From the IMG/VR virus record IMGVR_UViG_3300025769_000070: a DNA stretch of 64,000 bases; one strand, written 5' to 3'. Below, in pieces: positions 40,438 to 58,667 of the stretch. The notes beneath the pieces were generated by a model. It did not search any database. It worked only from the letters and a program-made list of their open reading frames with translations, and was not told where the DNA came from. The DNA is from a virus. Its lineage: Duplodnaviria; Heunggongvirae; Uroviricota; Caudoviricetes. The position numbers and the translations under genes were made by a program. How positions within the stretch are numbered: the first letter of the stretch is position 1; each line of letters opens with the position of its first letter.

Positions 40438-40497
40438 ACCGGCGGAAGCCGAGTCGTCTCACTCACCGCAGGTGTGAGTGAGCGAGACGCAGCGGAA
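40438..40497 (+). repeat. conserved intergenic stem-loop/leader element, copy 4
   Basis: ACCGGCGGAAGCCGAGTCGTCTCACTCACCGCAGGTGTGAGTGAGCGAGACGCAGCGGAA; about 60 nt near-identical to copy 1. Confidence 0.8.
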
Positions 40498-40616
40498 AAC
40501 AAGACACAAAGGAAAACCAAAAAGTCAGAATTTTCAGCTTGCAAGCCACAATGATTGTGTTACAATGCTCTCTCAATGGAACGGCGACCAACTTTTTCTT
40601 TCATGGGGATGAACGA

Positions 40617-41879: not shown

Positions 41880-42112
41880 TTCCATCCCCGTGGATTGAGT
41901 GGCGGGCATGATGCCCGCTGCTCAATATTTTGACTGGAGGCGAAATGTTCTGCATGTATCTTTCACCGGCAGGAAAACAATTCAATAGAATTGTAAGGGT
42001 TACTGGCGAAGTCGCCGTATGTATTGCGACAGGAAAGAAACGGTTCATTGACCCGATGTTTCTGAGACCAACAGTTTCCGCAGATTGGCAACTCTGAGAT
42101 AAAGGGCTTGAA

Positions 42113-42134
42113 GAGGCCGCTACGGAGCGGCCTC
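42113..42134 (+). terminator. GC-rich hairpin (member of repeated GGCCGCTACGGAGC family), terminator-like
   Basis: GAGGCCGCT-ACGG-AGCGGCCTC, a 9-bp stem. No clean U tract follows. Confidence 0.35.
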
Positions 42135-42205
42135 TGAGGGCCGCTCTGATGTAGACTAACCTGTACGGATGATCGAACAATCTTTGATAATTAAGCTCAA
42201 TTAAG

Positions 42206-42233
42206 TTGCAATGGTCTGCCGATATGATATACT
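42206..42233 (+). promoter_or_regulatory. sigma70-type promoter (TTGCAA-16-TATACT), TTGCAATGG family
   Basis: Shares the TTGCAATGG...GTGACATGAG architecture with the promoters at 44071 and 45353. Confidence 0.45.
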
Positions 42234-42296
42234 AGTGACATGAGACGCGGGGGCAATCAGCCCAACACGGGGTTTTTTCTTCAAAGGAGAATTGTG

Positions 42297-43193
42297 ATGC
42301 AGAATGTTCTTTCAAGTGACGTTGCTGAAACAGTCAAAAAAGAGTTCGATTTCCAGGTCAACAAGTTCCCCTTGTCTGGTCCCGATGGAATGAAGACTCC
42401 CTGTTATGGTCTGTTCCGGTCTGACAATGCGTCTTTCGTTGGTTCTTGCAACAATGCCAAAAGTCGGAACTATATTCCACACCAGACTGACGATGTCATT
42501 GCTCTGGTTGAAGCGTCTTCCACGCTGTTTGATGGTGAAGTCGATGTCACCTGTTTCTTCAATCAGGGGCACTATGTGTCCGTTCAACCAACAATGGACA
42601 AACGCAAAGCCGTGTTCGGCCAAAAGGATAACGTCTTCCCGCGAATCATTATTAACGCGGGATATGATGGTCAGGCTTTCAAAGCGAACATGGGCTACTA
42701 TCGTGACGTTTGCAAGAATCTGAGTATCATGAGAATGGTCAAAGGTACGACTGTTTCGATTCGTCACATGAGCAACCTACGCTCCGAGATGGATGAATTG
42801 ATTGAAACGTTCGGCGTTCTTGGCGAATCGTGGGAAGCTCTGGGGCAAAGAATTGATGCTCTTGAACAAACCAAAGTCTCTTTGGTAGGATTCCTGGAAG
42901 ATGTTTTTGGACCAGTCCCAGAAGAAACGGGACGGGGAAAAACGGTCGCGGAAAATCGTATTGAGAAGATTGTTGGTCGTCTTCTCAACGAACGATTCAA
43001 AACGGGACGACCATTGAGTGAAGGCGTGGCCCCGGAATATTCTGGATGGGAGCTTGCAAATGCTGTGCAGGGATATACTCAACATGATAAGCCCCGGCAT
43101 GGTAATCCTACTGAGTTTCAACGTGCTATCATGGCAATGAATGATCAACACGTCAATAAAGCATTCGAATTGCTTTTATCAATGAGTGCTTAG
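42297..43193 (+). CDS. DUF932-like (phage/plasmid-like) protein
   Basis: ORF 42240-43193; probable start MQNVLSS with an AAGGAGA SD. Reads ...CYGLFRSDN...HQTDDVIALVEA...IIINAGYDGQAFKANMGYYRDVCKNL..., recalled DUF932 signatures. Confidence 0.5.
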   Translation: MQNVLSSDVAETVKKEFDFQVNKFPLSGPDGMKTPCYGLFRSDNASFVGSCNNAKSRNYIPHQTDDVIALVEASSTLFDGEVDVTCFFNQGHYVSVQPTMDKRKAVFGQKDNVFPRIIINAGYDGQAFKANMGYYRDVCKNLSIMRMVKGTTVSIRHMSNLRSEMDELIETFGVLGESWEALGQRIDALEQTKVSLVGFLEDVFGPVPEETGRGKTVAENRIEKIVGRLLNERFKTGRPLSEGVAPEYSGWELANAVQGYTQHDKPRHGNPTEFQRAIMAMNDQHVNKAFELLLSMSA

Positions 43194-43205
43194 AATTGGT
43201 AAGGT

Positions 43206-43240
43206 GGGGGGATGGCGGAAACCCGCCATTCCCCTATCCC
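43206..43240 (+). repeat. palindromic direct repeat flanking HNH gene (left copy)
   Basis: GGGGGATGGCGGAAACCCGCCATTCCCCTAT. Confidence 0.6.
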
Positions 43241-43854
43241 AAAGTCTGAAGTATGTATTGGGCAAAACTTCTTAATTCATCGGGGCTAGCGTCAGATTTC
43301 ATTCGATTGGCTTTATGGCTCAGAATTTGGACATTGCCAATAATATAACCTTTTGTGTTGTCTATTCTGTCAATTGTTGCAGATTCTGATACAATTCGAC
43401 TAGTACCACCATAAGACAGTTCAATTCCCAATATCGGGCAGAACGGAACGTAGATGGAATCTAGATGCTCGCGAGTCAGATTAAACTCCCATCCTTTTTC
43501 TTTTGCTCGCTTTTTTGCGTTTTTCAACCTACCCGCCCATTTGTCATCTTTTTTTCTTTGGGCAATTTGAGCCTTGTTCTTCTCATAATATTCTCTTTGA
43601 TACTTGTCATAAGCTTCTTTTGAGGCATAGCCGTTACGCTGCCAAGCTTCTAACATGGAACGTCTCTTCTTTTGATAAGTTACACGGTTTTCTTTAGCCC
43701 TTTCTTTAGTGTCCAGCAGTTCACAATCATAACAGATAGTCTTTTGATAGTCGTAAAATTCTCCGGTTTTGACCTTGTTAACAATCCTTGGTCGTTGTAT
43801 AATCCTGAAATCTGAGAGGGGTTTATCGACTTGACATTTTCTACACTTTTTCAT
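43234..43854 (-). CDS. HNH-family endonuclease (free-standing, opposite strand to its neighbours)
   Basis: N-terminal CRKC...CYDC zinc finger. C-terminal ATIDRIDNTKGYIIGNVQILSHKANRMK is an HNH_3-like motif. Lone minus-strand gene in the plus-strand module. Confidence 0.6.
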   Translation of the reverse strand: MKKCRKCQVDKPLSDFRIIQRPRIVNKVKTGEFYDYQKTICYDCELLDTKERAKENRVTYQKKRRSMLEAWQRNGYASKEAYDKYQREYYEKNKAQIAQRKKDDKWAGRLKNAKKRAKEKGWEFNLTREHLDSIYVPFCPILGIELSYGGTSRIVSESATIDRIDNTKGYIIGNVQILSHKANRMKSDASPDELRSFAQYILQTLG

Positions 43855-43922
43855 TGTAAATACCCTTGAAAAGAAAATTTGTTCTCAAGGTTATATACAC
43901 CCTTTTCGATTCAAAAAGGACA

Positions 43923-43957
43923 AACGGGGATGGCGGATTTACGCCATTCCCCTATGC
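43923..43957 (+). repeat. palindromic direct repeat flanking HNH gene (right copy)
   Basis: GGGGATGGCGGATTTACGCCATTCCCCTAT. Confidence 0.6.
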
Positions 43958-44070
43958 GAGAGTATATCCTCCATCTTATAAATGGTAGAAAGATTAATTG
44001 GTTCATGTGCGTTCGATTCGCACCTCTCGCACTGACACTGAGTTTTTTCAAAAACTCTAAAGATAACGCT

Positions 44071-44098
44071 TGCAATGGTCGATAATTACAGTACAATG
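44071..44098 (+). promoter_or_regulatory. sigma70-type promoter (TTGCAA-16-TACAAT), TTGCAATGG family
   Basis: TTGCAATGGTCGATAATTACAGTACAATGGTGACATAAAG, near-identical to the promoter at 45353. Confidence 0.5.
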
Positions 44099-44170
44099 GT
44101 GACATAAAGCGATCAGCTTGACCTACAACCAGGCCATCATCTTGGCCGAATCAATCCTGGAGGCTTTGAA

Positions 44171-44458
44171 ATGAAAGACATTATGGTTGGCGGATTCTTT
44201 GTTCTTTTTATTATTGGGGCATTGTTTATTGGTGCAACTAATGTACCACTAGAGCAAGAACCACCAACAGAGCTTCAACAACTACAAACTGAGGTGCGGT
44301 CTTTACGCAACGACCTGAACCAGTTAATCCTTGCATTGCCCGAAGATCCGACCATCATTGTAGATGGTCAAGTGGTAGACGAACATTTTGACTGGAACGT
44401 GTTTCATAACGTGCCGGGGAAAACAGATGATCAAAAAACCAGCGTTTTACCAGATTGA
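44171..44458 (+). CDS. small membrane-anchored protein
   Basis: N-terminal TM helix GGFFVLFIIGALFIGA; Q/L-rich. Confidence 0.45.
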   Translation: MKDIMVGGFFVLFIIGALFIGATNVPLEQEPPTELQQLQTEVRSLRNDLNQLILALPEDPTIIVDGQVVDEHFDWNVFHNVPGKTDDQKTSVLPD

Positions 44459-44837
44459 CCAGTGGAACATGCTTTCACTACTGGAACCGTTTCAAAAGGT
44501 GGACGTATACCGGAACTTGACTTCTGGTCTGTGGAGTGTCAGGCAGAATGGGATTGTTATACTACACGCTGAGTGTATAGCAATTTACAACCCCGAATTT
44601 ATCGTCAGTCAAAAGGGAAGGGCGAGGGTAATTCGGGAACAAAAGAAATACATCCATGCTTATGTTCGGGGCTTTCCTACATTTTTATCTGGGAAAAGGA
44701 CAGGGCCAGTTAATCCAACGGTTTTGACTTATAATCCCTACATTCACGAGAGTTTTGTGGACGAACGGGGGAATCCGGTATATAATGCTGGCATGTGTGT
44801 GTTGCGTCCGGATCATAAAGTTGAGGTAGTCAGATGA
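44427..44837 (+). CDS. hypothetical protein
   Basis: ORF 44388-44837; likely start MIKKPAFYQ with a GGGGAAAACAG SD. Confidence 0.4.
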   Translation: MIKKPAFYQIDQWNMLSLLEPFQKVDVYRNLTSGLWSVRQNGIVILHAECIAIYNPEFIVSQKGRARVIREQKKYIHAYVRGFPTFLSGKRTGPVNPTVLTYNPYIHESFVDERGNPVYNAGMCVLRPDHKVEVVR

Positions 44838-45003
44838 ATGAATATTGGGTAATCATGAAGGCGGCAGGTATTCAACCCTCTTACGTGTATGGTCCATTCA
44901 CATATCAAGAGGCCAGAAAAGAGTATGACCGGCGAACTGATCTGTACGAACAAAACAACCGGGAATTCACAATTCGATTGACAAAGACCGAAATTCTGGC
45001 GTA
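44836..45003 (+). CDS. hypothetical mini-protein (55 aa)
   Basis: ATGA start/stop overlap with the upstream gene. Reads MNEYWVIMKAAGIQPSYVYGPFTYQEARKEY.... Confidence 0.3.
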
Positions 45004-45266
45004 AGCCAGTTGGTATGAGAAAGCTCCTCATACTGTAAAGTGGTAAACGGTGAAGCACGGTCCACTATAATAAAACGGGGTTTCACCATACAATATGGAG
45101 TAGGGGCCACTATTGATAACTGTGGCAGTCAGACCGCAATATCTGACCGGGTTTGCTTTCTTCTTTTCTAGGGAGATTTAAGCACAGAAGAGTAATTAAC
45201 TTCTGAATACCCATGCGGGTTCAATTCCCGCCTACTCCTGCCTTATTCTTTTACTAGGCCGCTACG

Positions 45267-45288
45267 GAGCAGCCGCTGGCGGCTGCTC
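45267..45288 (+). terminator. GC-rich hairpin (GGCCGCTACGGAGCAGCCGCTGGCGGCTGCTC family)
   Basis: GAGCAGCCG-CTGG-CGGCTGCTC, a 9-bp stem. Confidence 0.35.
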
Positions 45289-45352
45289 TGATGCGTGTAT
45301 TCCAGTGAACGTATGTCTTTCTGTTCTTTTTCGGTTTTCTCAAGGTTGGTGC

Positions 45353-45380
45353 TTGCAATGGACGATAACTATAGTATAAT
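45353..45380 (+). promoter_or_regulatory. sigma70-type promoter (TTGCAA-16-TATAAT), TTGCAATGG family
   Basis: TTGCAATGGACGATAACTATAGTATAATGGTGACATAAGAG. Confidence 0.5.
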
Positions 45381-45461
45381 GGTGACATAAGAGACAACGG
45401 GAAAAAAAGCAGAATGGACATTATGACTCAGCAAGCAATTCCATTTGGGGGATGATTCGGC

Positions 45462-45758
45462 ATGAAAAAATATCAACTACGCAATCAGTTAGACTCATCC
45501 AAAACTAGGATACGTGAACTGGAAGCTCAATTAGTTCATCAGCATCATTTTGCTGATGCTAACATCGACAAATGTTCTACTGAGAAATTGTTGGGTTCTG
45601 CTGTCATCCTGGAATTAACTGCTTTAGGTGGCAGAACTATTGTAGCACCTATTGCTATAAGTGACGGGCTATCTCTAGAGACAATTGAAGCATTGAAGGC
45701 CGACATATGCCGATCCTACAAGAATCGTGTTGAGTTCAAACCAAAGGGGATGGAATGA
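45462..45758 (+). CDS. hypothetical protein
   Basis: 98-aa ORF with a GGGGGATGATTCGGC SD region. Confidence 0.45.
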   Translation: MKKYQLRNQLDSSKTRIRELEAQLVHQHHFADANIDKCSTEKLLGSAVILELTALGGRTIVAPIAISDGLSLETIEALKADICRSYKNRVEFKPKGME

Positions 45759-45988
45759 GATCGAAGCCTGTTCCTCACCACACTTTTCCCGGTGGGTATC
45801 CAATGTTCTACTACGTGAAGTCAGATGATGGTCACCTACACAGTTGCCCATCATGTGTCAATCAGAATCGTGTGGGTAGGAATGTGACGAAAGTTGAAGG
45901 TCACATTAACTATGAGGACGACAGTCTAACTTGTGATGTTTGTGAAAAGCGGATAGAATCCGCCTATGGGAGGGAGAATGAAAACTGA
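45755..45988 (+). CDS. zinc-ribbon small protein
   Basis: CPSC...CDVC cysteine pairs. ATGA overlap with the upstream gene. Confidence 0.45.
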   Translation: MRSKPVPHHTFPGGYPMFYYVKSDDGHLHSCPSCVNQNRVGRNVTKVEGHINYEDDSLTCDVCEKRIESAYGRENEN

Positions 45989-46199
45989 AGTTTGGTATCA
46001 ATGGAAAGAATTGATCGAAGGGCGATTGGTTGATGCCGAGTCTAATCCAATGCATAGCGAGACTCCTATAGGCGATTTTCTATTTGATTCACCGGAAGAT
46101 GCGAGGGATTACCTTGACGAATCCTTTGAAGACGAAGTCAAACCGGACTGGATTCTTGTTCGCACAACTTATGATCCCATAGGGGGTTACAATGGCTAA
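45978..46199 (+). CDS. hypothetical acidic protein
   Basis: ORF 45966-46199; probable start MKTEVW after a GGGAGGGAGA SD. Confidence 0.4.
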   Translation: MKTEVWYQWKELIEGRLVDAESNPMHSETPIGDFLFDSPEDARDYLDESFEDEVKPDWILVRTTYDPIGGYNG

Positions 46200-46242
46200 T
46201 AAAAAGAAAAGGCAGGTTTTTAACTAAAATCGCCAAAATACC

Positions 46243-46270
46243 TTGAAATCTCTCTGAGACATGGTACAAT
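46243..46270 (+). promoter_or_regulatory. sigma70-type promoter (TTGAAA-16-TACAAT)
   Basis: Hexamers with a 16-nt spacer. Confidence 0.4.
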
Positions 46271-46567
46271 TGACACAGCGGTGATCTAGTGATGACGATT
46301 ACAATATGATCACCAATGTTGGCTTGACCGCCAGTGTTTGACCGGCAACACAAAAAGTCCGTCTGAGATGTTTCCCAGTTCTTTAAGCTAGACGTTAAAC
46401 GATAGAATGTGGCGTAGAATGTTATAATAGTGTTCACCAGGTTCTGAATCTTTTACAACGTCAGAGAAAGATAAATGATCCGGCGTGTCAACGAAAGTTG
46501 TTAAATTGTTCCACTGCGGTGAGTTCAAACACGTAATCTATCAGTTTTGGTCGTTTACTGAGGTAAC

Positions 46568-46652
46568 AACTAAACGGCCACAGGGGATTTGGTGTATTTG
46601 GTAACACGCCGCTATTTAAGCGAGGCACATCGGTTCGATTCCGATTTTAGTT
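46568..46652 (+). other. tRNA-like element (class-II-like, non-canonical anticodon arm)
   Basis: Perfect 7-bp acceptor pairing AACTAAA/TTTAGTT. T-arm ATCGG-TTCGATT-CCGAT. D-arm GCCA...TGGT with GG. The anticodon arm has only a GTGT/ACAC stem with an 8-nt loop. Confidence 0.3.
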
Positions 46653-46673
46653 TGGAACGCCTGAAATTGAGAA

Positions 46674-46699
46674 GTGAGGTTCGAATCCTTACAATCCCA
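46674..46699 (+). other. tRNA 3'-half-like fragment (T-arm GGTTCGAATCC + acceptor-like tail)
   Basis: TGAGG-TTCGAAT-CCTTA then CAATCCCA. No matching 5' half at tRNA distance. Confidence 0.25.
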
Positions 46700-46718
46700 T
46701 TTGGTATCCTGATTTTGC

Positions 46719-46746
46719 TTGACTGTTCGTGTCAACGTGGTACAAT
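46719..46746 (+). promoter_or_regulatory. sigma70-type promoter (TTGACT-16-TACAAT)
   Basis: Upstream of the gene at 46811. Confidence 0.45.
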
Positions 46747-46810
46747 TCGCATATGAAAAACGTGCTCATCACAGCACTGATTTTGGGCTTCCTTTTGGAG
46801 TGGTTTAGAG

Positions 46811-47086
46811 ATGAAGATTAGCAGAGCAAAAGCGTTAAAACTTATTAAGGCTTCTAACGGGAAGACTTTTGGAGTTGGTTTCATTAAAAAGAACGGGGAG
46901 CAAAGGAATATGAATGCCCGTCTGGGTGTTAAAAAGGGAGTTATTGGTGTGGGGATGAAATACGATCCATCAGAACATGATTTGATCACCGCTTTCGATA
47001 TGAAGAAAGACGGTTTTCGTATGATCAACCTTAACACTCTTTTCAGACTTTCAACCAAAAAGAAAACTTACGAAATCGTAGATTAG
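46811..47086 (+). CDS. hypothetical basic protein
   Basis: 91-aa ORF with a GGAGTGG SD. Confidence 0.45.
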   Translation: MKISRAKALKLIKASNGKTFGVGFIKKNGEQRNMNARLGVKKGVIGVGMKYDPSEHDLITAFDMKKDGFRMINLNTLFRLSTKKKTYEIVD

Positions 47087-47091
47087 GGGGG

Positions 47092-47316
47092 ATGGTGGAA
47101 GAAGAACTTGAAGAAATCAGAGAAAGAATAAAAAGGCAGCACCTTAACTATCTATGGCAAGAAGATCACATGATGGAAATCATCATGCAAATTTGTCGAG
47201 AACAGGATGATGATCGAGAAGCTGTTAAAAATGTTATCAAGTCTACTATCTCTTTGGCATATTCGACAGGAGCCGCTGACGCCACTGAGATGACTATTGA
47301 ATTACTCAATAAATAG
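47092..47316 (+). CDS. hypothetical acidic protein
   Basis: 74-aa ORF with an AGGGGGG SD. Confidence 0.45.
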   Translation: MVEEELEEIRERIKRQHLNYLWQEDHMMEIIMQICREQDDDREAVKNVIKSTISLAYSTGAADATEMTIELLNK

Positions 47317-47328
47317 GATCAGATTGAA

Positions 47329-47362
47329 GCCTCAGATTGCATCAGTAATCTGGGGCTTTTTT
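47329..47362 (+). terminator. rho-independent terminator
   Basis: CAGATTGCATCAGTAATCTG hairpin followed by GGGGCTTTTTTG. Confidence 0.4.
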
Positions 47363-47381
47363 GTATTCATAGGGTGCAACA

Positions 47382-47411
47382 GAGCAGCCGCTGGCGGCTG
47401 CTCGTTTGTGT
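47382..47411 (+). terminator. GC hairpin family member with U-rich tail
   Basis: GAGCAGCCGCTGGCGGCTGCTC followed by GTTTGTGT. Confidence 0.45.
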
Positions 47412-47464
47412 ATCTGCCTATACGGGTGAATTCGGCTATTTTTCACTTTTTAGACTTAAGACTA

Positions 47465-47492
47465 TTGCAATCAACTGTCGATATATTATAAT
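47465..47492 (+). promoter_or_regulatory. sigma70-type promoter (TTGCAA-16-TATAAT)
   Basis: TTGCAATCAACTGTCGATATATTATAATAGGGACATGAAG. Confidence 0.5.
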
Positions 47493-47538
47493 AGGGACAT
47501 GAAGGGGAGAGAACGAAACACTAAACGGGGGAGAGAGA

Positions 47539-47724
47539 ATGAAGTTTAGAGTGACAATGAAGAATCCTGATTGTGTGTCGCAGGCTATCGACGACGCCAT
47601 TGCTGATGATCCTCATCAGGAAGACGATATCAGATCAGCTATCTCTAGGTGGTTCAAATACGAGGATTATTTGGAAGTAGAGATTGACACTTCTGTCGGA
47701 ACTTGCGTGGTGATCAAACCATGA
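47539..47724 (+). CDS. hypothetical small protein
   Basis: 61-aa ORF with a GGGGGAGAGAGA SD. Confidence 0.4.
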   Translation: MKFRVTMKNPDCVSQAIDDAIADDPHQEDDIRSAISRWFKYEDYLEVEIDTSVGTCVVIKP

Positions 47725-47888
47725 ACAATCAAAGAGCTATACTTGAACAGTTGCGGGATGCGTTAGCGATTGTGTCTGAAGCGTATATCGAATGTCCACA
47801 TTGTGTTTGTGGGCCGGTATTGCAAGCCAAACAGAGTCTTGAGGATGCTGTCCATAGACTAGAAAAAAACATTGAAAGTTCAAACTAG
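47703..47888 (+). CDS. hypothetical small protein (CxxC...CxC)
   Basis: 61-aa ORF overlapping the upstream gene by 22 nt. Confidence 0.4.
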   Translation: MRGDQTMNNQRAILEQLRDALAIVSEAYIECPHCVCGPVLQAKQSLEDAVHRLEKNIESSN

Positions 47889-47921
47889 TAAAAAGGAAGG
47901 CAGATTAACGCAAGAAAACAC

Positions 47922-47949
47922 TTGACACGGCCAGTAACTAAGTTATAAT
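47922..47949 (+). promoter_or_regulatory. sigma70-type promoter (TTGACA-16-TATAAT)
   Basis: Perfect consensus hexamers. Confidence 0.55.
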
Positions 47950-47978
47950 ACGGAAGTCAACTCACACGGGGGAAAACG

Positions 47979-48722
47979 ATGATTACATTTTCAGAAGCGA
48001 ACAGTAAACTCAAAAAATTGCAAGCCGTTACTGGTCGAACTGTTTTCAGCTTCGACCTATTGTCGGGGCACACTTGTCCCGGTGCGAAGGATTGTTTCAC
48101 CAAAGTTGTTTATGATTGGCTGACAGATACTTATTCGCTGTTCGATGGTCCTGATCAGGAGTTTCGTTGTTACGCTGCAAGCCAAGAGCAACAATATACA
48201 GGCGTTTACAATAAGCGTCTCGAAAACTGGACTATCCTGGAAAGAATGTCCAGTCCGAACATAATGGCAGCAGCTATTGAAGCTGCTATGCCTAGTCACG
48301 CGGCGACTATTCGGATTCATTCAGGCGGCGACTTCTTTAGTATGTCTTATTTCAAGGCATGGATACTTGTTGCCAAACGCAACCCGCTAAAAAGATTCTA
48401 TGCGTACACTAAGTTTCTGCCAGCATGGGTTAAATTTATGGGGATTATTCCCGCAAATTTAATTCTGACGGCATCGCGTGGTGGGCGTTATGATCATCTG
48501 ATCGACAAACACGGTCTGAGAGAAGCTAAGGTGATCTATGACGAGTCTGAGGCTAACGGTCTGGCGATTGATGTTGACGATTCTATTGCCGCCGATCCTG
48601 ATCGGAGAAATGAGGATTTCTGTCTGCTGATCCACGGACAAGGGCAAGCGGGTTCTGATCAGGCAAAGATTCACAGTGAACTAACACGGGCAAAACGAAA
48701 CGCCAAACTAATCTCTAACTAG
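47979..48722 (+). CDS. hypothetical protein (GHTCPGAKDC motif)
   Basis: 247-aa ORF with a GGGGGAAAACG SD. Confidence 0.5.
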   Translation: MITFSEANSKLKKLQAVTGRTVFSFDLLSGHTCPGAKDCFTKVVYDWLTDTYSLFDGPDQEFRCYAASQEQQYTGVYNKRLENWTILERMSSPNIMAAAIEAAMPSHAATIRIHSGGDFFSMSYFKAWILVAKRNPLKRFYAYTKFLPAWVKFMGIIPANLILTASRGGRYDHLIDKHGLREAKVIYDESEANGLAIDVDDSIAADPDRRNEDFCLLIHGQGQAGSDQAKIHSELTRAKRNAKLISN

Positions 48723-48735
48723 GGGGACCAAACCT

Positions 48736-49038
48736 GTGACTATTGAAGAACAAATTGCTGTAATGGACGCTTTCCGTAATGGGTTTTGTATTGATTCCCG
48801 CCTAAAATCCCCGCCGGGAGTTGTAAAGTCTTGCTGGTGCTGTAATGAGAGTCCGGGTTGGGATTGGGTTAACTATGAATATCGGGTTCGACCTGTGCCA
48901 AAAATTACTCGTCAAAATTTAATTGACGATATAATCACGGTGTGCCGCAATGCGGAGAATCGTATGTTAGCGGCGAACCACCGTCATGTTACTGGTAGCC
49001 AAGTTTTCTGGGATGAAGACGAATTCTCAGAAAACTAG
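48736..49038 (+). CDS. hypothetical Cys/Trp-containing protein
   Basis: 100-aa ORF. Confidence 0.45.
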   Translation: MTIEEQIAVMDAFRNGFCIDSRLKSPPGVVKSCWCCNESPGWDWVNYEYRVRPVPKITRQNLIDDIITVCRNAENRMLAANHRHVTGSQVFWDEDEFSEN

Positions 49039-49048
49039 AAGAAACGAC

Positions 49049-49076
49049 TTGCATTAGCTTTAGCTTATGCTATAAT
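49049..49076 (+). promoter_or_regulatory. sigma70-type promoter (TTGCAT-16-TATAAT)
   Basis: Hexamers with a 16-nt spacer. Confidence 0.45.
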
Positions 49077-49110
49077 TTGGAAAAGACCAGGCATGTGACC
49101 TGGCAACATT

Positions 49111-49464
49111 TTGACCGGGAACAAAGTTCCCCTTTTTGAAAAGAGGTTTGCTATGGAAGACACGACTTTTGTGGAAATGTGGATTGACACTCACGCTGAA
49201 GGTGGCACCATCAATGACATGGTTAAAAACTATCGTCAGGCGGTGCCGGAATGTACCGCGAGCGATGCAAGTCTGAAGACTGCACTCTCGACCCGAGCTA
49301 CTAAAATCAGGGCAGAACTGATTGCTCTGGGAAAAACTGAAGATGAAGTCACGAAACTCTTCCCAAAGTTCCCGCGAGCCACCAAAACCAAGCAGAATCT
49401 CCAGTCTGCTGTTGCCCGTATCCTTGAAATGGCAGGAGAAAAAGCTGAACCGGAAGGAGAATGA
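49111..49464 (+). CDS. hypothetical protein
   Basis: 117-aa ORF with an AAAGAGG SD. Confidence 0.45.
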   Translation: MTGNKVPLFEKRFAMEDTTFVEMWIDTHAEGGTINDMVKNYRQAVPECTASDASLKTALSTRATKIRAELIALGKTEDEVTKLFPKFPRATKTKQNLQSAVARILEMAGEKAEPEGE

Positions 49465-49556
49465 AAACACTCCTGATCATTGGATTTTGTGTAGGATTCA
49501 TGCTATCCTTCGTGTCTGATGAGTAGTTCAAGTGGGGGAGAAATCCCCCACTATTT

Positions 49557-49640
49557 GCGGGCGTGATGTAATTGGCAGCCATATTCCGCTTAAACCGGAA
49601 TGGGAACAATCCCGTGCAGGTTCGAATCCTGTCGCCCGTA
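49557..49640 (+). tRNA. tRNA-Leu(UAA), class II
   Basis: Acceptor GCGGGCG/CGCCCGT (G1-U72 wobble). 3-bp D stem ATG/CAT with GG in the loop. Anticodon stem TTCCG/CGGAA with loop CTTAAAC, giving anticodon UAA. Long variable arm GGGAACAATCCC. T-arm GCAGG-TTCGAAT-CCTGT. Discriminator A. Confidence 0.7.
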
Positions 49641-49692
49641 TTATAGTTGAAAACCTGGTAAAAAGACAAGGCCAAATAGGGGGAATCTTCTT

Positions 49693-49953
49693 ATGAGGAT
49701 TATTGAAGCCAGCTTATGTTTGAGATTTTACCGATCAAACGGCTGGACGCGAGAAGCCGTTCGGGAACTGTTATCCGATGATAAACGTCTGTCGCGAGTA
49801 TGTCCAAGGTATTTTGACGACCGTGACAGAGTTGGGGTAGAAGATGATCTGCCCCATGATGATTGTGATTACTTCGCAGTCTATGATTGTGGAGATCCAT
49901 TCTCAAAGGATGCAATCGCGAAACATGAACTGATACCGTTCATGCTGGGCTGA
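49693..49953 (+). CDS. hypothetical protein
   Basis: 86-aa ORF with an AGGGGGAATC SD. Confidence 0.4.
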   Translation: MRIIEASLCLRFYRSNGWTREAVRELLSDDKRLSRVCPRYFDDRDRVGVEDDLPHDDCDYFAVYDCGDPFSKDAIAKHELIPFMLG

Positions 49954-49969
49954 GGCTGATTCTTCCAAA

Positions 49970-50043
49970 GGCAAGAGGGGTTGTATTACCCCTTCTTGCC
50001 CGCTTCCGCAGCGTAGCTGCGGGTAATTGACCGTCTTTTTTCG
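49970..50043 (+). terminator. tandem hairpins + T-tract (end of GC-richer early module)
   Basis: GGCAAGAGGGG-ttgtatta-CCCCTTCTTGCC (11 bp), then CCGCAGC-gta-GCTGCGG, then TCTTTTTT. Confidence 0.5.
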
Positions 50044-52143: not shown

Positions 52144-52254
52144 CCAAAGTATACAATAGGAAATTTAACCCCGAAAATTTAGTAATTTAGAACCCTCCAG
52201 TCATTCATTTGGTTGGGGGTTTTCTTTTATCCTTTTAAAAAGAGAAGGCCCAAA

Positions 52255-53469
52255 ATGCAGAAACTTCAAACAATGGTAGATAATCTTAAAGCAACGAGTT
52301 CTCGTAATAATAAGATACAAATTCTTAAAGACAATCCTTGGTCTAAAGATATTCTCTTTCGTATATACAACCCGGATATTCTTTATGGGGTAAAATCGGG
52401 AAAATGCCGGAAATTATCACACCTAAAAGGTCTCCATTCTAATGACCTTTATCATTTACTAGACCAATTGATTAAACACAGTGGTCATGATTGTGTAAGG
52501 CTTGTTAATCAGTTTGTTCTGGACAACCCTAATTATGAAGAATTGATTTATAATGTCGTGGACAAGTCTTTAAAATGTAGGATTGATGATACAGTTATTA
52601 ATTCCGCATTCCCTGGACTTATTCCTACGTTTAATGTCGCTTTAGCTGAACAATATGATAAATACTCTGATAGAGTCAAACCCGACTGGCTTTGGTCAAG
52701 AAAATTAGACGGGGTACGTCTGATAGCGACCAAGAGAGGCTCAGACGTAACTTATCAATCCAGAGAGGGTAAGTACTTCACAACGCTAGACGCCCTCACA
52801 GAGCAGATTAGAGGTATTGAGGGCGACTTTGTCCTGGATGGTGAAATTTGTGTGATGAAAGACGGTAATGAGGATTTTTCTGGTATTGTGGGGGCTGTTA
52901 AAAGAAAAGGCCATACAATTGAAAATCCTAAATTCTTCGTATTCGACATCTTGACTATTGAAGAGTTCGAATCGCGGGAATCCACGTCTGTACTGAAAGA
53001 AAGGCTTGCCAGACTGGAATTTTCCGGTAAAATTGAGAAATTAGAACAGAGGGAGATTGGAGATGGGGGATTATTTGATTACCCCGATACTTGGGAAGGT
53101 TTGATTCTTAGGGCGAATGTTCCCTATGAAGGCAAGCGTACCTCAAATATGCTCAAGGTAAAGAAATTTCAAGACGATGAATATGTCGTGGAATCTTTAG
53201 AAATTGGAGACTTTCAGATCGTAGAAGACGGTCGGGAAAAAATTATTGAGACTGTAACCAATGTCTCCTTTTCTCATAAGGGTGAGAAGGTAAGTGCCGG
53301 ATCTGGATTTAGCCTTGACCAAAGAAAAGAATATTATGCCGATCATAGTAAGATTATCGGTAAAGTTGTAACAATCAAACACTTTGGAGAGAGCAAAGAT
53401 AAAAACGGTAAAATCTCTTTAAGGTTTCCTACTATTAAAATAGTACATGGTGATCATCGTAAAATCTAA
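52255..53469 (+). CDS. ATP-dependent DNA ligase
   Basis: Motif I KLDGVR, motif III LDGEICV, motif IV EGLILRAN, motif V LKVKKF. ORF 52213-53469; start MQKLQT with an AGAGAAGG SD. Confidence 0.85.
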   Translation: MQKLQTMVDNLKATSSRNNKIQILKDNPWSKDILFRIYNPDILYGVKSGKCRKLSHLKGLHSNDLYHLLDQLIKHSGHDCVRLVNQFVLDNPNYEELIYNVVDKSLKCRIDDTVINSAFPGLIPTFNVALAEQYDKYSDRVKPDWLWSRKLDGVRLIATKRGSDVTYQSREGKYFTTLDALTEQIRGIEGDFVLDGEICVMKDGNEDFSGIVGAVKRKGHTIENPKFFVFDILTIEEFESRESTSVLKERLARLEFSGKIEKLEQREIGDGGLFDYPDTWEGLILRANVPYEGKRTSNMLKVKKFQDDEYVVESLEIGDFQIVEDGREKIIETVTNVSFSHKGEKVSAGSGFSLDQRKEYYADHSKIIGKVVTIKHFGESKDKNGKISLRFPTIKIVHGDHRKI

Positions 53470-53475
53470 TCAATT

Positions 53476-53967
53476 ATGATAAATAAATTTAGACACATTC
53501 AATACACTGATGATGGATGCGATGAATATCAGTGTTTAAGCTGCTATGGAAAGTTAGAAATCCGGTATATCAATAATTGGAAATTCTGCCCAATGTGTGG
53601 TATCGAGTTTTCAGGTGAATTAGAGTGTAGGGAACATAACACGCCGTCGTGGCTGTACAAGCTTGATCTGGATTACCATGATCAGTATGAGCTTAAGAAA
53701 AAGCTCTGGAAAACTAAGAAGTCAGGATGGGTAATTGAATATAGGGATATTTGGTTTAATAAGTCAGATAGCGGAGAAATTTTATATAGACACGATCATT
53801 TTGCTTCAACTAATTGGGCTGTCTATAGAGATAATAGGTCTATAAATATTACAGCTATTGAAATTTTTAAACATCTTAAAGATTTAAGGTTTCAGAGTCG
53901 AATAGACTATAATATTTTAGATTATGGTCTTATTACTGAATATAGAGGAAGATATGTCTCGAATTGA
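53476..53967 (+). CDS. zinc-ribbon-containing hypothetical protein
   Basis: CxxC...CxxC near the N-terminus. 163 aa. Confidence 0.45.
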   Translation: MINKFRHIQYTDDGCDEYQCLSCYGKLEIRYINNWKFCPMCGIEFSGELECREHNTPSWLYKLDLDYHDQYELKKKLWKTKKSGWVIEYRDIWFNKSDSGEILYRHDHFASTNWAVYRDNRSINITAIEIFKHLKDLRFQSRIDYNILDYGLITEYRGRYVSN

Positions 53968-54095
53968 ATTAGACTTATTTATTAGTGGTCTAGAATATTC
54001 CTTTTGGATTCAATGTTTAATGTTTAATGATGAATTCATCGTGTTTGTCCCCAGATATATTACTGATTTAGAAAGTGTAGTTAGTAGGTGTTATA

Positions 54096-54359
54096 ATGAG
54101 TAATTTTGTATTCTCTAGTATGCTACACTCGCAGTTAAACTCGCAGTTACACTGGCATTTATACTCAGAGTTAGACTCGCAGTTACACTCGCAGTTAAGC
54201 TCACAGTCACACTGGCAGTTATACTCGCAGTCACACTGGCAGTTATACTCGCAGTTAAGCTCGCAGTTACGCTCGCGGTTACACTCGAAGTTAATCTCGC
54301 AGTTAGGCTCGCAGTTATACTGGCAGTTAGACTCGCGGTTGGAGAGAGATAGTGAATAG
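54096..54359 (+). CDS. lead mini-ORF of array A (MSNFVFSSMLH + (SQLx)n ...QLERDSE), coding status uncertain
   Basis: Real ATG with an AGGTG SD and a unique N-terminus. Downstream blocks re-start at GTG inside the punctuation with a GGAGAG SD. Punctuation carries stops in two plus-strand frames. Confidence 0.3.
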   Translation: MSNFVFSSMLHSQLNSQLHWHLYSELDSQLHSQLSSQSHWQLYSQSHWQLYSQLSSQLRSRLHSKLISQLGSQLYWQLDSRLERDSE

Positions 54360-55793
54360 ATCGCAGTTACACTTGCAGTTAAACTTGCAGTTACGCTCAC
54401 AGTCAAACTATCAGTTACGCTCGCAGTTAAACTCGCAGTTACACTTGCAGTTAAACTTGCAGTTACGCTCACAGTCAAACTATCAGTTACGCTCGCAGTT
54501 AAACTCGCAGTTATACTCGCAGTTAAACTCGCAGTTATACTCGCAGCTAAACTCGCAGTTATACTGGCAGTTATACTCGCAGTTACGCTCACAGTTGGAG
54601 AAAGATAGTGAATAGATCCCAGTTACACTCGCAGTTAATCTCGAAGTTAGGCTCGCAGTTATCCGGGGTGTTATACTCGCAGTTATACTCGCAGTTACGC
54701 TCGCGGTTACACTCGAAGTTAATCTCGCAGTTAGGCTCGCAGTTATACTGGCAGTTAGACTCGCGGTTGGAGAGAGATAGTGAATAGATCGCAGTTACAC
54801 TTGCAGTTAAACTTGCAGTTACGCTCACAGTCAAACTATCAGTTACGCTCGCAGTTAAACTCGCAGTTACACTTGCAGTTACACTTGGAGTTACACTGGC
54901 AGTTAGACTCGCAGTTATACTCGCAGTTATACTTGCAGTCAAACTTACAGTTACGCTTGCAGTTAGACTCGCAGTTACGCTCACAGTTGGAGAGATAGTG
55001 AATAACTTACAGTTAGACTCACAGTTACGCTCGCAGTTAAACTCGCAGTTACACTTGCAGTTACACTTGGAGTTACACTGGCAGTTAGACTCGCAGTTAT
55101 ACTCGCAGTTATACTTGCAGTCAAACTTACAGTTACGCTTGCAGTTAGACTATCAGTTACACTCCCAGTTAGAGAAAGATAGTGAATCCCAGTTGGAGAG
55201 AGATAGTGAATAGCTCGCAGTTATCCGGGGTGTTATACTCGCAGTTATACTCGCAGTTACACTCGGACTTACGATCACAGTTACAATTTCGGTTAGACTC
55301 GCAGTTATACTGGCAGTCATACTCACAGTTAGAATCGCAGTTATACTCACAGTTGGAGAGAGATAGTGAATAGATCGCAGTTAATCTCGCAGTTACTCTC
55401 GCAGTTATACTGGCAGTTATGCTCGCAGTTAGGCTCGCAGTTATACTGGCAGTTAGACTCGCAGTTACGCTCGCAGTTACGCTCACAGTTAGGCTCGCAG
55501 TTATACTGGCAGTTAGTCTTGCAGTCAAGCTCGCAGTTAGACTCGCAGTTACGCTCACAGTTGGAGAGATAGTGAATAACTTACAGTTAGACTCGCAGTT
55601 ATACTCGCATTTAAGCTCGCAGTTACACTCGCAGTTACACTCGCAGTTAAACTCACAGTTACGCTCGCAGTTAGACTCTCAGTTATACTTTCAGTTATAC
55701 TCGCAGTTATACTCACATTTAGACTCTCCGTTATACTGGCAGTCATTATCGCAGTTATACTGGCAGTTGGAGAGAGATAGTGAAGTGTATTAC
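54121..55793. repeat. array A: ~125 tandem 12-bp units (consensus ACTCGCAGTTAN) in 8 blocks separated by 25-bp punctuation GTTGGAGAGAGATAGTGAATAGATC
   Basis: Read directly. Punctuation copies sit at 54341, 54594, 54766, 54986 (short variant ...GAGATAGTGAATAACTTAC), 55168/55192 (tandem), 55352, 55562 (short variant) and 55766. Higher-order 72-bp and roughly 200-bp duplications. The variable positions within the 12-mer are 1, 4, 5, 10 and 12. Confidence 0.9.
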
Positions 55794-55910
55794 TGGCAAT
55801 ATCCCGATCAGCCGTAAAAATGGAAATTACCACTTGACGCCACCTCAGAGCTTGGTATGATGTGACCTGTTGAGAGCCAACAAAGCTATAACAAGTAGAG
55901 AGTAGATAAA

Positions 55911-56493: not shown

Positions 56494-57330
56494 TTGAATA
56501 TGGCTAAAGCTAAAAAGCAATCTTTTACCCCAGAAGAAGAAGCTCTTATTCCGGAATTCTTCGAAAAGTATCTTAAACAACAGACGGAACAAGCGTCTCT
56601 TGAAGATATTACGAAGGCTGTGAATACAATCTGGGCGGACATGGGGCAACCGCCGCCAGAAATTAAGGTGATGGACTCTCCTATCGCCTGTAAGAAAGAT
56701 TGCCCAAATCTTAAAGATTTTGCTTCTCCTTATTGGAGTATTTGGTTTAACTCATACGCAGCAATGTATGATTTTGCCAACACTATTGGTCTTGAAATGG
56801 ACCAAGAGAAACTTGAGAAATTTCTTTTATGGACTCGTTGCTGCCCCTTTATCCTTTTCAAGGATGATTTTGTTTACGTAAGTCGTAAACCTATCAAACT
56901 TGGATTCAATGATGCGGGACAGCTTCATTGTGACGATGGACCGGCTTGTCTCTATGCGGATGGATGGTCAATCTGGTCTCTGAACGGTGTAGCCGTTACA
57001 GAGCAAATCGTAATGAGACCAGAAACTTTGACTCTCGAACAGATAAAGAACGAAGAAAACGAAGAAGTTAAGCGTTTGATGATCGAGCGTTATGGTTTCG
57101 AACTATACCTTGCACAAGTTAATGCGGAATTGATTGATCGTCGAACAAACGATATTGAAGGAACTAGAGAGCTTCTGTATAAAGCAGACGGTATGCAGTT
57201 CCTACTGTGCATCTGTCCAAGCACTGCTAAAGAATTCTGCCTGGAAGTAGAAAACGGAATTAAAACATGTGCAGAGGCACAAAAATATCTGTCTAGTGGA
57301 TTATCAGACAGAATCATTAGTGCTTCTTAA
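56494..57330 (+). CDS. hypothetical protein (Cys-rich central region)
   Basis: 278-aa ORF with a GAGGATTTTGAAT SD. Confidence 0.5.
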   Translation: MNMAKAKKQSFTPEEEALIPEFFEKYLKQQTEQASLEDITKAVNTIWADMGQPPPEIKVMDSPIACKKDCPNLKDFASPYWSIWFNSYAAMYDFANTIGLEMDQEKLEKFLLWTRCCPFILFKDDFVYVSRKPIKLGFNDAGQLHCDDGPACLYADGWSIWSLNGVAVTEQIVMRPETLTLEQIKNEENEEVKRLMIERYGFELYLAQVNAELIDRRTNDIEGTRELLYKADGMQFLLCICPSTAKEFCLEVENGIKTCAEAQKYLSSGLSDRIISAS

Positions 57331-57432: not shown

Positions 57433-57855
57433 ATGAAGATGGCTGTTGAAAGTTTTCAAGAAAATCTGGCTGAACTGCGTTCTTCTGTAGAAGGGCTGAA
57501 CGCCGCAAAAACCGAGCGAATTAGTGCTCCTTCATTGGGAGATGTCGTTCGCCAGGGAGACATCTACTTGGTATGCCTTAATGCTCTACCATCAGGCAAG
57601 CCGACAAAGGACACTCAGCTTGCCCCTGGCAACACTCAGGGTAGCCGACATATCCTTGTCGGAGACGCTACAATCGTTAAGGAAGTTACCTTCCGAGACA
57701 TTAATAGCGTACTCACTGGACCTGCTTTTAAGTGCAACAGTGACGTTGAAGTCACGCACCCAGAGCATGGAAACCGGATTCTGCCGGAAGGCACTATCTG
57801 GCAAGTTGTTTATCAACTTTCCCACAGTGAAGAAGTTAAGCGTGTGCAAGACTAG
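57433..57855 (+). CDS. hypothetical protein
   Basis: 140-aa ORF with a strong GAGGAG SD. Confidence 0.5.
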   Translation: MKMAVESFQENLAELRSSVEGLNAAKTERISAPSLGDVVRQGDIYLVCLNALPSGKPTKDTQLAPGNTQGSRHILVGDATIVKEVTFRDINSVLTGPAFKCNSDVEVTHPEHGNRILPEGTIWQVVYQLSHSEEVKRVQD

Positions 57856-57924
57856 ACTTAGTTAAAAGGGTCTTACAAGGGGTTGGAGTCACATCCAGCC
57901 CCTTATTTTTTGGATAAATGAATT

Positions 57925-58155
57925 ATGAAAATTAAAAAATTGGATAATAAACTGATTCTTAGAGATTATAAAGAAAAATTGTATTATGTCTTGAACTCTT
58001 TGGATAGTCAGTTGTATAAAGATGTTAATACCAGTTTTTTTTATTTTCCTTATCTTACAAAATATTATAATTCAGAACAGGTGTCACTAAATAGAATAGC
58101 CCATGATATGAACGATATGGTGCGTGATCAGTTCTGGAGTGATTGTAATGAATAA
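57925..58155 (+). CDS. hypothetical protein
   Basis: 76-aa ORF; its stop overlaps the start of the array B lead ORF. Confidence 0.4.
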   Translation: MKIKKLDNKLILRDYKEKLYYVLNSLDSQLYKDVNTSFFYFPYLTKYYNSEQVSLNRIAHDMNDMVRDQFWSDCNE

Positions 58156-58315
58156 TTTCCAGTTCAACCATCATTTATATTCGGATTTAGACTCGCAATT
58201 GTCATTGCAGTTATACCCTCATTTACAACACAAGTTATACTGGATGTTACGTTCTCAAATACGTTCGCAGTTACACTCGCAGTTAGAATCGCAGTTGGAG
58301 AAAGATAGTGAATAG
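58124..58315 (+). CDS. lead mini-ORF of array B (MNNFQFNHH + tetrapeptide repeats ...QLEKDSE), coding status uncertain
   Basis: ATG start overlapping the upstream stop. N-terminus similar to the array A lead ORF (M-x-N-F-x-F). Confidence 0.3.
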   Translation: MISSGVIVMNNFQFNHHLYSDLDSQLSLQLYPHLQHKLYWMLRSQIRSQLHSQLESQLEKDSE

Positions 58316-58545
58316 ATCGCAGTTACACTTGCAGTTATACTCGCAGTTAAACGATCATTTTTACTCGCAGTTACGCTCGCAGTTAAACTCGCAGTTATAC
58401 TTACAGTTACACTCGCAGTTACACTCGCAGTTATACTGGCGGTTACACTCCCAGTTGGAGAGAGATAGTGAATAGCTCGCAGTTACACTTGCAATTATTC
58501 TCGCAGTTAAGCTCGCGGTTATACTGGCAGTTGAACTCTCAGTGC
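58175..58545. repeat. array B: second copy of the 12-bp repeat/punctuation architecture (~30 units, 2 punctuation motifs, degenerate 5' block)
   Basis: Punctuation at 58294 (GTTGGAGAAAGATAGTGAATAGATC) and 58454 (GTTGGAGAGAGATAGTGAATAGCTC). The 12-mers are ACTCGCAGTTAN. Confidence 0.85.
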
Positions 58546-58667
58546 TTATTCCCTTTATACAAGGAGTTATTATCACAATTATCCACTCAGACTCAAACAT
58601 ACTCAGATTTGAATGAATGGAATGATAAATATTAATAAAAGGGTGTATAATTATCAGGAGGTGTATT

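Follow-up and report, generated by a model that had tools for sequence, protein, structure and literature searches.

Coding minisatellites, or in-frame variable-number tandem repeats, are built from a unit whose length is a multiple of three, and their copy number changes in frame by slippage or unequal recombination. Translationally coupled overlapping genes have stop-start overlaps of the ATGA or TAATG type. Pentapeptide-repeat proteins (A(D/N)LXX; PF00805) form a right-handed β-helix with a period of five residues. Here we analyse a locus that recalls each of these, found in a 64,000-nt stretch of DNA from a virus of the Caudoviricetes (IMG/VR record IMGVR_UViG_3300025769_000070), the whole of which is called the window below. 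The locus contains an array of 12-bp tandem repeats interrupted by a conserved 25-bp punctuation motif (array 1) and, 2.3 kb downstream at 58148-58635, a second array with the same unit and punctuation (array 2), which an earlier sequence-only reading of this DNA had missed. We consider it likely, with a probability of roughly 0.75, that the arrays are a coding minisatellite, in the form of a chain of translationally coupled mini-genes on the plus strand. Array 1 would then most likely be a row of overlapping short genes and not an array of DNA-binding sites.

In the phase that matters, the 12-bp unit encodes Ser-Gln-Leu-X (SQLX), where X is a hypervariable NNC codon. As in coding minisatellites, the copy number changes without loss of frame, and units are homogenised within a genome and differ between genomes; those repeats lie within one gene, whereas here the amplified unit includes a stop codon, a ribosome-binding site (RBS) and a start codon. 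As in coupled genes, the stop codon of one open reading frame (ORF) overlaps the next start, by 8 nt or 1 nt, and the RBS lies inside the upstream ORF, but here the putative coupling is iterated 7+2 times between near-identical paralogues. Pentapeptide-repeat proteins share the very short period, the central Leu, the variable flanks and the long uninterrupted runs; the period here is however 4, there is no Pfam match, and AlphaFold2 (AF2) predicts a helical structure. The internal repeat of proteins of the DUF6745 family (PF20530), which come from phages and a few metagenome-assembled genomes, has the same S-Q-L-X peptide, hypervariable fourth residue, 12-bp period and variable copy number. 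In those proteins the repeat is inserted between an N-terminal module and the domain, whereas here there are 11 mini-genes with their own starts and stops.

The NNC codon, in which the first two positions vary and a stop is impossible, also resembles the variable regions of diversity-generating retroelements (DGRs). A DGR target was considered and rejected: the variation is not adenine-specific, with A5 and A9 unchanged in 145/154 and 140/154 units, and no template copy accompanies a variable one. Among the approximately 25 ORFs of the window that were scanned with Pfam and PHROGs, from a genome of ~140 kb, none matched a reverse transcriptase. Arrays of clustered regularly interspaced short palindromic repeats (CRISPR) and iteron, parS and pac arrays likewise have regularly spaced conserved DNA motifs. 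The repeats of CRISPR arrays measure about 23-55 bp and alternate with unique spacers of comparable size. Here, by contrast, the 12-bp units are contiguous, the stretches between punctuations are the repeat itself with no unique spacers, as the sequence-only reading had concluded for CRISPR, and what relatives share is the peptide, not the DNA word; no cas, rep or par genes were found among the neighbours by Pfam or PHROG. We found no published description of a phage element with such an architecture, in agreement with the sequence-only reading, and no mention in the literature searched of DUF6745, of the repeat peptides or of a comparable 12-bp phage array.

Organisation of the arrays

Array 1 has a period of 12 and covers 54124-55768 with 135.1 copies of the unit according to Tandem Repeats Finder, a correction to the earlier count of about 125. 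The punctuation motif GGAGARAGATAGTGAAT, allowing ≤2 mismatches, occurs 9 times in the window (7 in array 1 and 2 in array 2) and in none of 100 shuffles. There are nine punctuations in array 1, of which six are long, two are short variants and one is a degenerate copy, forming a tandem pair with a long copy at 55168+55192. Start-to-start distances of 256, 256, 172, 218, 184+24, 160, 206 and 208 nt define eight blocks. The number of blocks, the 25-bp punctuation, its short variant, the single tandem duplication and the hierarchical organisation had all been described correctly, as had the 72-bp super-repeat, seen here as an 81-nt exact run at lag 72 beginning at 54361. The claim that whole blocks are duplicated holds in part, since the exact common segments are 92 nt (B1/B3), 102 nt (B2/B4) and 130 nt (B4/B5). 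Similarly, variation in the unit TCGCAGTTANNC is confined to certain positions, but these are mainly four (2-3 and 10-11) and not five, with minor variation at 8, 9 and 12; position 12 is C in 132/154 units. The repeat DNA word of the arrays can be written (ACTCGCAGTTAN)n or (ACTCGCAGTTAC)n. The GC content of the array is 0.43 compared with about 0.35-0.39 in the flanks, which confirms the contrast noted before.

The statement that no long ORF exists in any frame is misleading. The plus strand is fully tiled by overlapping ORFs of 55-87 amino acids (aa), and minus-strand ORFs of 129-174 aa also cross array 1. Each block is one (Ser-Gln-Leu-X)n ORF of 55-87 codons. There are eight such mini-genes at 54096-55817 and three at 58148-58635, with a DUF6745 gene lacking the repeat between them (Table 1). 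In every block the ORF runs from the GTG of one junction (or, in the opening ORF of each array, from an ATG) to the stop codon of the next junction, always in the SQLX register. A TAGG RBS-like motif is found approximately 11 nt upstream of mini-ORF 1.

The punctuations are located exactly where one mini-ORF ends and the next begins. The long junction, G TTG GAG AGA GAT AGT GAA TAG, encodes …L-E-R-D-S-E-stop, and overlapping it by 8 nt (GTGAATAG) is the start GTG AAT AGA TCG CAG, encoding M-N-R-S-Q…, with GGAG at -11 relative to the GTG. The short junction encodes …L-E-R-TAG and overlaps the GTG by 1 nt (TAGTG), such that in mini-ORF 4 the G of the TAG is the first base of the next GTG. A stop-start overlap of one of these two types is present at all junctions. 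Shine-Dalgarno (SD)-like motifs occur at -16..-7 upstream of 11 of 25 other phage genes, against a background of 9%, and the junction GGAG is therefore in the usual place. The punctuation reads as a gene junction, composed of a stop codon, a candidate RBS and a start codon, and not as a spacer motif; it would return the ribosome to the S-Q-L-X frame.

A few mini-ORFs depart from the standard form. Mini-ORF 2 contains an exact internal duplication of 72 bp (24 aa), and mini-ORF 5 reads through the degenerate junction, where TAG has become TCC. The last junction has no stop codon and mini-ORF 8 therefore extends 10 codons into unique sequence. The unique tails of the mini-ORFs are VYYWQYPDQP and STQTQTYSDLNEWNDKY. 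The 26-aa non-repeat ORF that starts at the GTG of the last junction is probably vestigial. Both arrays are preceded by a leader ORF. The two leaders have no homology to each other, and it is uncertain that the array-1 leader belongs to the module.

The distribution of stop codons also speaks for a coding repeat. The SQLX frame is stop-prone, in that a single change suffices to turn TCG, CAG, TTA or TAC into a stop codon. Over the 11 repeat bodies this frame has 0 stops, compared with 50 in the plus-strand RSYT phase and 6 in the LAVX phase, while the minus-strand phases have 169 (TAA phase), 19 (NCEX) and 2 (VTAS). When the 143 array substitutions were redistributed, 17.1 SQLX stops were expected against 0 observed, and 0/5000 simulations reached zero. 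With duplicated contexts removed, 12.1 stops were expected and again 0/5000 simulations reached zero; counting each distinct 9-mer once, the expectation is 5.7 against 0 observed, and 2/5000 simulations reached zero. In the per-position table, TCG changes to TTG 18 times and to TGG 17 times but never to TAG; position 2 of the unit is A only together with T at position 3 (TAT); TTA changes to TCA 10 times and never to TAA or TGA; and CAG never changes to TAG. One frame is thus open beyond chance, as in a coding tandem repeat, and the assertion that this is not a normal coding repeat does not stand.

Changes in length also preserve the frame. The exact 76-aa leader protein of array 2 is present on 12 public contigs (cluster look-up), and eight of these places (L139-L146) were fetched for comparison; coming from several other samples (JGI 3300025759, 3300007234, 3300022183 and 3300006916; ENA ERZ27275026/34/36), they contain identical mini-ORFs. 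The 140-kb contig L139 is identical to the window across 4.5 kb of flanks, the sole difference being a 182-nt indel (window 54839-55152; L139 3038-3289), both ends of which fall within a perfect ~131-nt repeat. It converts two intact ORFs into one intact ORF: in L139, L141 and L142, which have 7 ORFs, a single recombinant ORF of 83 aa takes the place of mini-ORFs 4 and 5, whereas the window and L140 have 8. The two forms could be real heterogeneity or a short-read collapse. An assembly artefact had been named as the condition that would undo the array; the array recurs base for base in several independent assemblies and is therefore not an artefact.

The tetrapeptide repeat in DUF6745 proteins and related phages

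The same SQLX repeat is found elsewhere inside ORFs of 300-700 aa. An IMG/VR contig (L001, UViG_3300033067_000471) has 15 copies of the window's 12-mer in the SQLX frame, within an ORF of 358 aa (9569-10645) that matches DUF6745 with E=5e-8; here the repeat separates an N-terminal module (…DSPMAC…) from the DUF6745 domain. A protein search with one mini-ORF gave 16 proteins. In 12 of them the N-terminal module comes first and (SQLX)n behind it, and many of the 16 end within the repeat. A profile of the 11 mini-ORFs matched 384 representative clusters among 1.84 billion proteins, and a DUF6745-family domain is present in 129 of the 145 newly retrieved top matches. The mini-ORFs themselves have no Pfam match to the DUF6745 domain; what they have in common with the family is its repeat module.

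The codons of the repeat are not the same in other lineages: they are AGC-CAG-TTG in L002, TCG-CAG-CTC in a metagenome-assembled genome (MAG) of the Bryobacteraceae (L004), and TCT-CAG-CTT in L005. Lineages that differ in codon choice retain the peptide, which indicates that conservation, on the sequences compared, is at the peptide level and not at the DNA level. Other tetrapeptides occur at the same site of DUF6745 proteins, namely SQVX, GQLX, DSVX, xNLX, AATX, SATX and GAVX, and across DUF6745 lineages (homologues P0059-P0107) the fourth residue is always hypervariable. The number of units varies between 0 and about 90, the upper value being that of P0116 (719 aa). A 33-unit period-12 repeat is also found inside the DUF6745 match of a Nitrosomonas MAG (L134, 4202-4601), and the scan of the genome collection gave only two MAG loci with DUF6745. 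The DUF6745 gene of the window lacks the tetrapeptide repeat that many homologues have after the 'DSPxAC' motif, and its product and close homologues (about 275 aa) have no repeat. A member from a cultured phage, Ma-LMM01 gp174, is also repeat-less and is annotated as 'hypothetical protein'; its gene adjoins a uracil-DNA glycosylase gene and is a few genes from the DNA polymerase gene. On this basis we infer that the free-standing mini-genes would be the same module that many DUF6745-family proteins have internally.

Two side observations concern these proteins. At 9806-9987 of L001 the repeat codons are TCG-CAG-TTA-NNC, identical to those of the window, although the two DUF6745 domains share only 25% identity. 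Such agreement may have arisen by chance (about 1 in 72), through horizontal transfer of this repeat, or from a preference at the DNA or RNA level. At 6249-6482 of L005, one extra nucleotide within the TCT-CAG-CTT repeat breaks the DUF6745 gene into two called ORFs (6001-6384 and 6332-6820); this could reflect a sequencing error, a pseudogene or an intermediate on the way to a repeat gene that stands alone.

Free-standing mini-genes are also present in relatives of the phage. In L132, where DUF6745 is 85% identical, there is one after the ligase gene, of 56 aa (MVNQLYSQLHLQLHSQL…; TCA-CAG-CTA). In L128 and L129, where DUF6745 is 67% identical, there is one after a 141-aa gene and its terminator; that of L129 has 48 aa (MNNSQLHSRLYSQL…) and codons TCT-CAG-CTA, and the number of repeat units is 7.1 in L128 and 8.9 in L129. 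A closer relative that covers array 2, L028, has the same leader ORF, at least 4 coupled mini-ORFs and the same junctions. Its unit content relative to the window is mosaic, and the two differ by in-frame indels of 12, 60 and 24 nt. Beyond these, a DNA search of GenBank phages with the flank, the array and a structural protein gave no match, and an IMG/VR search with the window's DUF6745 protein and virion protein gave no close relatives. The punctuation motif has 0 matches in IMG/VR. In metagenomes it matches 117+ stretches, essentially all of them single chance matches, and among those fetched only L028 is relevant.

Interpretation and alternatives

On the basis of these observations, we propose that the repeat module was separated from a DUF6745-type gene to give free-standing mini-genes, which are single in the relatives, and that in this phage they would have been amplified and reshuffled by unequal recombination or slippage among 12-bp units and whole genes, junction included. 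Termination and reinitiation would couple translation along the chain. The products would be elongated repeat proteins, and may work jointly with the DUF6745 protein or contribute to the same process; the repeat-less DUF6745 gene between the arrays provides a Rosetta-stone context, which we count in favour of this proposal. The low synonymous diversity, the saturated X positions and the rare codons make the expansion look recent and cassette-wise, from a few founder units. The mini-ORF array, which the sequence-only reading had listed as an alternative, is supported by the ORF chain, the open frame and the conservation of the peptide.

The mini-proteins are composed of 23.5% Leu, 18.7% Ser and 18.5% Gln, and have isoelectric points of 4.7 to 9.9 depending on the X residues. 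AF2 predicts that the repeat of a fused homologue (P0059) is an antiparallel helical hairpin (H79-117, H122-171) off the globular domain. Leu codon TTA occurs approximately 141 times in the arrays, at 186 per 1000 codons in the mini-ORFs against 25 in the large ORFs, and is read by the phage tRNA-Leu(UAA). This tRNA may be a supply for the arrays, or the pattern may be mere AT-rich codon usage.

A number of findings weigh against the proposal. The mini-gene is absent from L126, L130 and L136-L138, and would therefore be dispensable. Between the window and L028 the leader ORF differs in 13/77 codons (10 nonsynonymous, 3 synonymous) and the first mini-ORF in 8/56 (5 nonsynonymous, 3 synonymous); on these counts, purifying selection on the amino acids is not demonstrable at short range. 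The 140-aa gene nearby differs in 3/112 codons, and judged by these alignments the array module is evolving fast. The fold of the repeat is not settled, because the AF2 hairpin has a predicted confidence (pLDDT) of only 53-72 and the hydrophobic moment, which almost vanishes at 100°, has its maximum at 180°. Searches of the PDB gave no fold match and no sequence match with the mini-ORF profile, and Pfam, PHROG and PADLOC offered no clue to function besides the DUF6745 domain of the neighbouring gene. TCG makes up 58% of Ser codons in the arrays and 5% in the large ORFs, and CAG 94% of Gln codons against 36%. The identical DNA unit in the unrelated phage L001 leaves room for a factor at the DNA or RNA level or for horizontal transfer. 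The exact mini-proteins, with a V or M start, are not in a collection of 15 billion proteins. Lastly, public gene calls are inconsistent and sometimes on the minus strand: at 2326-3909 of L139 the calls are minus-strand ORFs of 174, 129 and 92 aa, while in L141-L146 they are plus-strand ORFs of 55, 68, 81 and 83 aa. If the proposal is correct, a regular array of 'non-coding' appearance is in fact a set of genes, which automatic callers annotate inconsistently or on the wrong strand.

Some of these findings would be expected if the arrays were the neutral or selfish expansion of a repeat segment that had broken away from a DUF6745-type gene, with peptides that have no function of their own. The frames would then stay open through the polarity or uncoupling cost of stop codons, or because the expansion is too young to decay. 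Low synonymous diversity and long exact duplications do point to a recent expansion, the counts against L028 are near neutral in the manner of a ratio of nonsynonymous to synonymous change, mini-genes are absent from several relatives, and the codons are rare. We regard this explanation as unlikely. Free-standing (SQLX)n persists in phages whose DUF6745 is 67-85% identical, with synonymous turnover and intact frames; the stop deficit is still significant after collapsing duplicates; and the RBS and start codon of the junctions are kept in L028 at about 5% divergence.

A more speculative suggestion, to which we give a rather small chance, is that the tetrapeptide repeat is a diversification device independent of reverse transcriptase, in which unequal recombination would shuffle and duplicate 12-bp cassettes that differ only in the NNC codon and swap them among arrays, so that an elongated repeat scaffold would keep gaining new surfaces. 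DUF6745 proteins would hold such a variable stalk in cis, and here it would be split into 10-11 co-expressed mini-proteins, a library that may act on host targets as these change, for instance defence or receptor-side proteins. The lineage-specific tetrapeptides with their hypervariable fourth residue fit this suggestion, as do the mosaic units of window and L028 and the contrast between saturated X positions and almost uniform synonymous sites. Should the repeat prove to be a binding surface varied by recombination, it would be a new route to protein diversification in phages; otherwise the locus illustrates neatly how a coding minisatellite can be amplified along with the junction of its gene. 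In either case, it exposes an undescribed feature of the widespread DUF6745 family, a lineage-specific period-4 repeat with a hypervariable fourth residue, and the split arrangement of a repeat-less DUF6745 protein and 11 repeat mini-proteins offers a handle on the repeat in trans, apart from the domain.

The sequence-only reading had preferred a function at the DNA level, as an array of protein-binding sites such as a centromere, pac site, origin or decoy. On this view the 12-bp units would be densely packed sites, possibly iterons, for a DNA-binding protein of the phage or the host, and the ORFs would be incidental. The extreme regularity of the array, a GC content atypically high for the genome, codons rare for the genome, the unusual uniformity of synonymous third positions (the C at position 12) and the identical TCGCAGTTA unit in L001 are all consistent with it. 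We nevertheless find it very unlikely. Relatives keep the peptide and change the DNA word, which becomes TCACAGCTA, TCTCAGCTA, AGCCAGTTG or TCGCAGCTC; stops are avoided specifically in one frame; RBS, start and stop are in register at the junctions; and the same repeat is part of much longer ORFs elsewhere. The neighbours, several of which are unannotated small ORFs, have no Par, Rep or small-terminase match in Pfam or PHROG.

It is highly improbable that the minus-strand genes are the real ones, with (Val-Thr-Ala-Ser)n followed by a Cys-rich (Asn-Cys-Glu-X)n. They are the longest ORFs in the region and are called in L139, but their NCEX phase is broken 19 times, their starts are arbitrary GTG or TTG codons within units with no conserved RBS, and all genes flanking array 1 are on the plus strand. 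Moreover, the L129 unit TCT-CAG-CTA-TAC gives TGA in the equivalent antisense phase in every unit, and the NCEX and VTAS peptides do not recur in relatives whereas SQLX does.

Nor is there much to recommend a single long polypeptide produced when ribosomes shift frame in a programmed manner, or recode the stop codon, at the punctuations, which we find scarcely credible: the junction of 25 = 24+1 nt and the SD-like element before the stop codon do recall the +1 frameshift site of prfB, where such an element lies upstream of the stop, but there is no slippery codon at the junction (GAA-TAG), TAG read as sense would lead to TGA at the next junction, and there is no suppressor tRNA, only tRNA-Leu. 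The shift required would also be +1 at the long junctions and -1 at the short ones, or the reverse, whereas a GTG suitably placed behind GGAG is available at both, which fits re-initiation and not frameshifting.

Gene neighbourhood and other features of the window

Table 1. Positions in the window of the mini-ORFs, their junctions and the neighbouring features.
Feature	Position	Strand	Remarks
tRNA-Leu(UAA)	49556-49641	+	phage tRNA; reads TTA
ATP-dependent DNA ligase gene	52213-53469	+	upstream of array 1
Gene	53476-53967	+	between ligase gene and array 1
Leader ORF, array 1	53924-54103	+	59 aa; stop overlaps ATG of mini-ORF 1 by 8 nt (ATGAGTAA)
Mini-ORF 1	54096-54359	+	ATG, 87 aa, MSNFVFSSMLH(SQLX)n…LERDSE
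Mini-ORF 2	54352-54615	+	GTG, 87 aa, MNRSQLH…QLEKDSE
Mini-ORF 3	54608-54787	+	GTG, 59 aa
Mini-ORF 4	54780-54998	+	GTG, 72 aa; ends at short junction …LER-TAG
Mini-ORF 5	54998-55213	+	GTG, 71 aa; ends …EKDSESQLERDSE
Mini-ORF 6	55206-55373	+	GTG, 55 aa; alternative upstream GTG at 55182
Mini-ORF 7	55366-55572	+	GTG, 68 aa
Mini-ORF 8	55572-55817	+	GTG, 81 aa
Non-repeat ORF	55780-55860	+	26 aa, starts at GTG of last junction; probably vestigial
Punctuations, array 1	54338, 54594, 54766, 54986 (short), 55168+55192, 55352, 55560 (short), 55766
Junction cassette GTTGGAGAGAGATAGTGAATAGATCG	54338-54363	+	upstream C-terminus and stop, GGAG, overlapping GTG
Further long junctions	54594-54619, 54766-54791, 55192-55217, 55352-55377, 58294-58319, 58454-58479
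Other junctions	54986-55008 (short), 55168-55190 (degenerate), 55560-55582 (short), 55766-55787
DUF6745 (PF20530) gene	56494-57330	+	E=8.6e-20; between arrays 1 and 2
140-aa gene	57433-57855	+	comes after DUF6745 genes in many phages
Intrinsic-terminator-like hairpin and T-run	57877-57904	+	between DUF6745 pair and array-2 module
Leader ORF, array 2	57925-58155	+	76 aa; stop overlaps ATG of first mini-ORF by 8 nt (ATGAATAA)
Array-2 mini-ORF 1	58148-58315	+	ATG, 55 aa; GGAG at -12
Array-2 mini-ORF 2	58308-58475	+	GTG, 55 aa
Array-2 mini-ORF 3	58468-58635	+	GTG, 55 aa; repeat decays into unique C-terminal tail

Pfam, PHROGs and PADLOC, run on the mini-ORFs and their neighbours, identified only DUF6745 and phrog_31813, and an Rfam scan of 52-60 kb gave nothing. 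The strong terminator-like hairpin upstream of the array-2 leader is identical in L028. A gene of approximately 120-143 aa ('…QGD[IV]…') lies directly 3' of DUF6745 in the window, in L001 (10655-11014), and in L126, L130 and L136-L138; in L128 and L129 this partner gene is located further downstream, and the two genes form a conserved pair. A sequence search of the PDB with the 140-aa protein of the window matched nothing but phytoplasma SVM effectors, at a non-significant E≈0.07. The position upstream of the DUF6745 gene is occupied by a T4 rIIB-like gene in L136 (directly upstream, 7091-8819) and by thioredoxin, NAMPT or ligase genes in other relatives.

Elsewhere in the window, the region 37000-50000 has a GC content of 0.41-0.48 compared with 0.32-0.39 in the remainder, together with a positive GC skew, and coincides with a block of plus-strand genes starting near 36.6 kb. 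A 536-aa HNH / homing-endonuclease ORF (21914-23524, minus strand; phrog_3339, E=1.7e-70) is located among structural genes. Tandem repeats of 51 bp (18649-18772) and 60 bp (21009-21200) lie inside large minus-strand ORFs, at 17212-19422 (with tail-fibre PHROG matches) and 19422-21425. Finally, a minus-strand ORF of 1027 aa at 28633-31716 has a PHROG match to the terminase large subunit that is restricted to residues 85-557.

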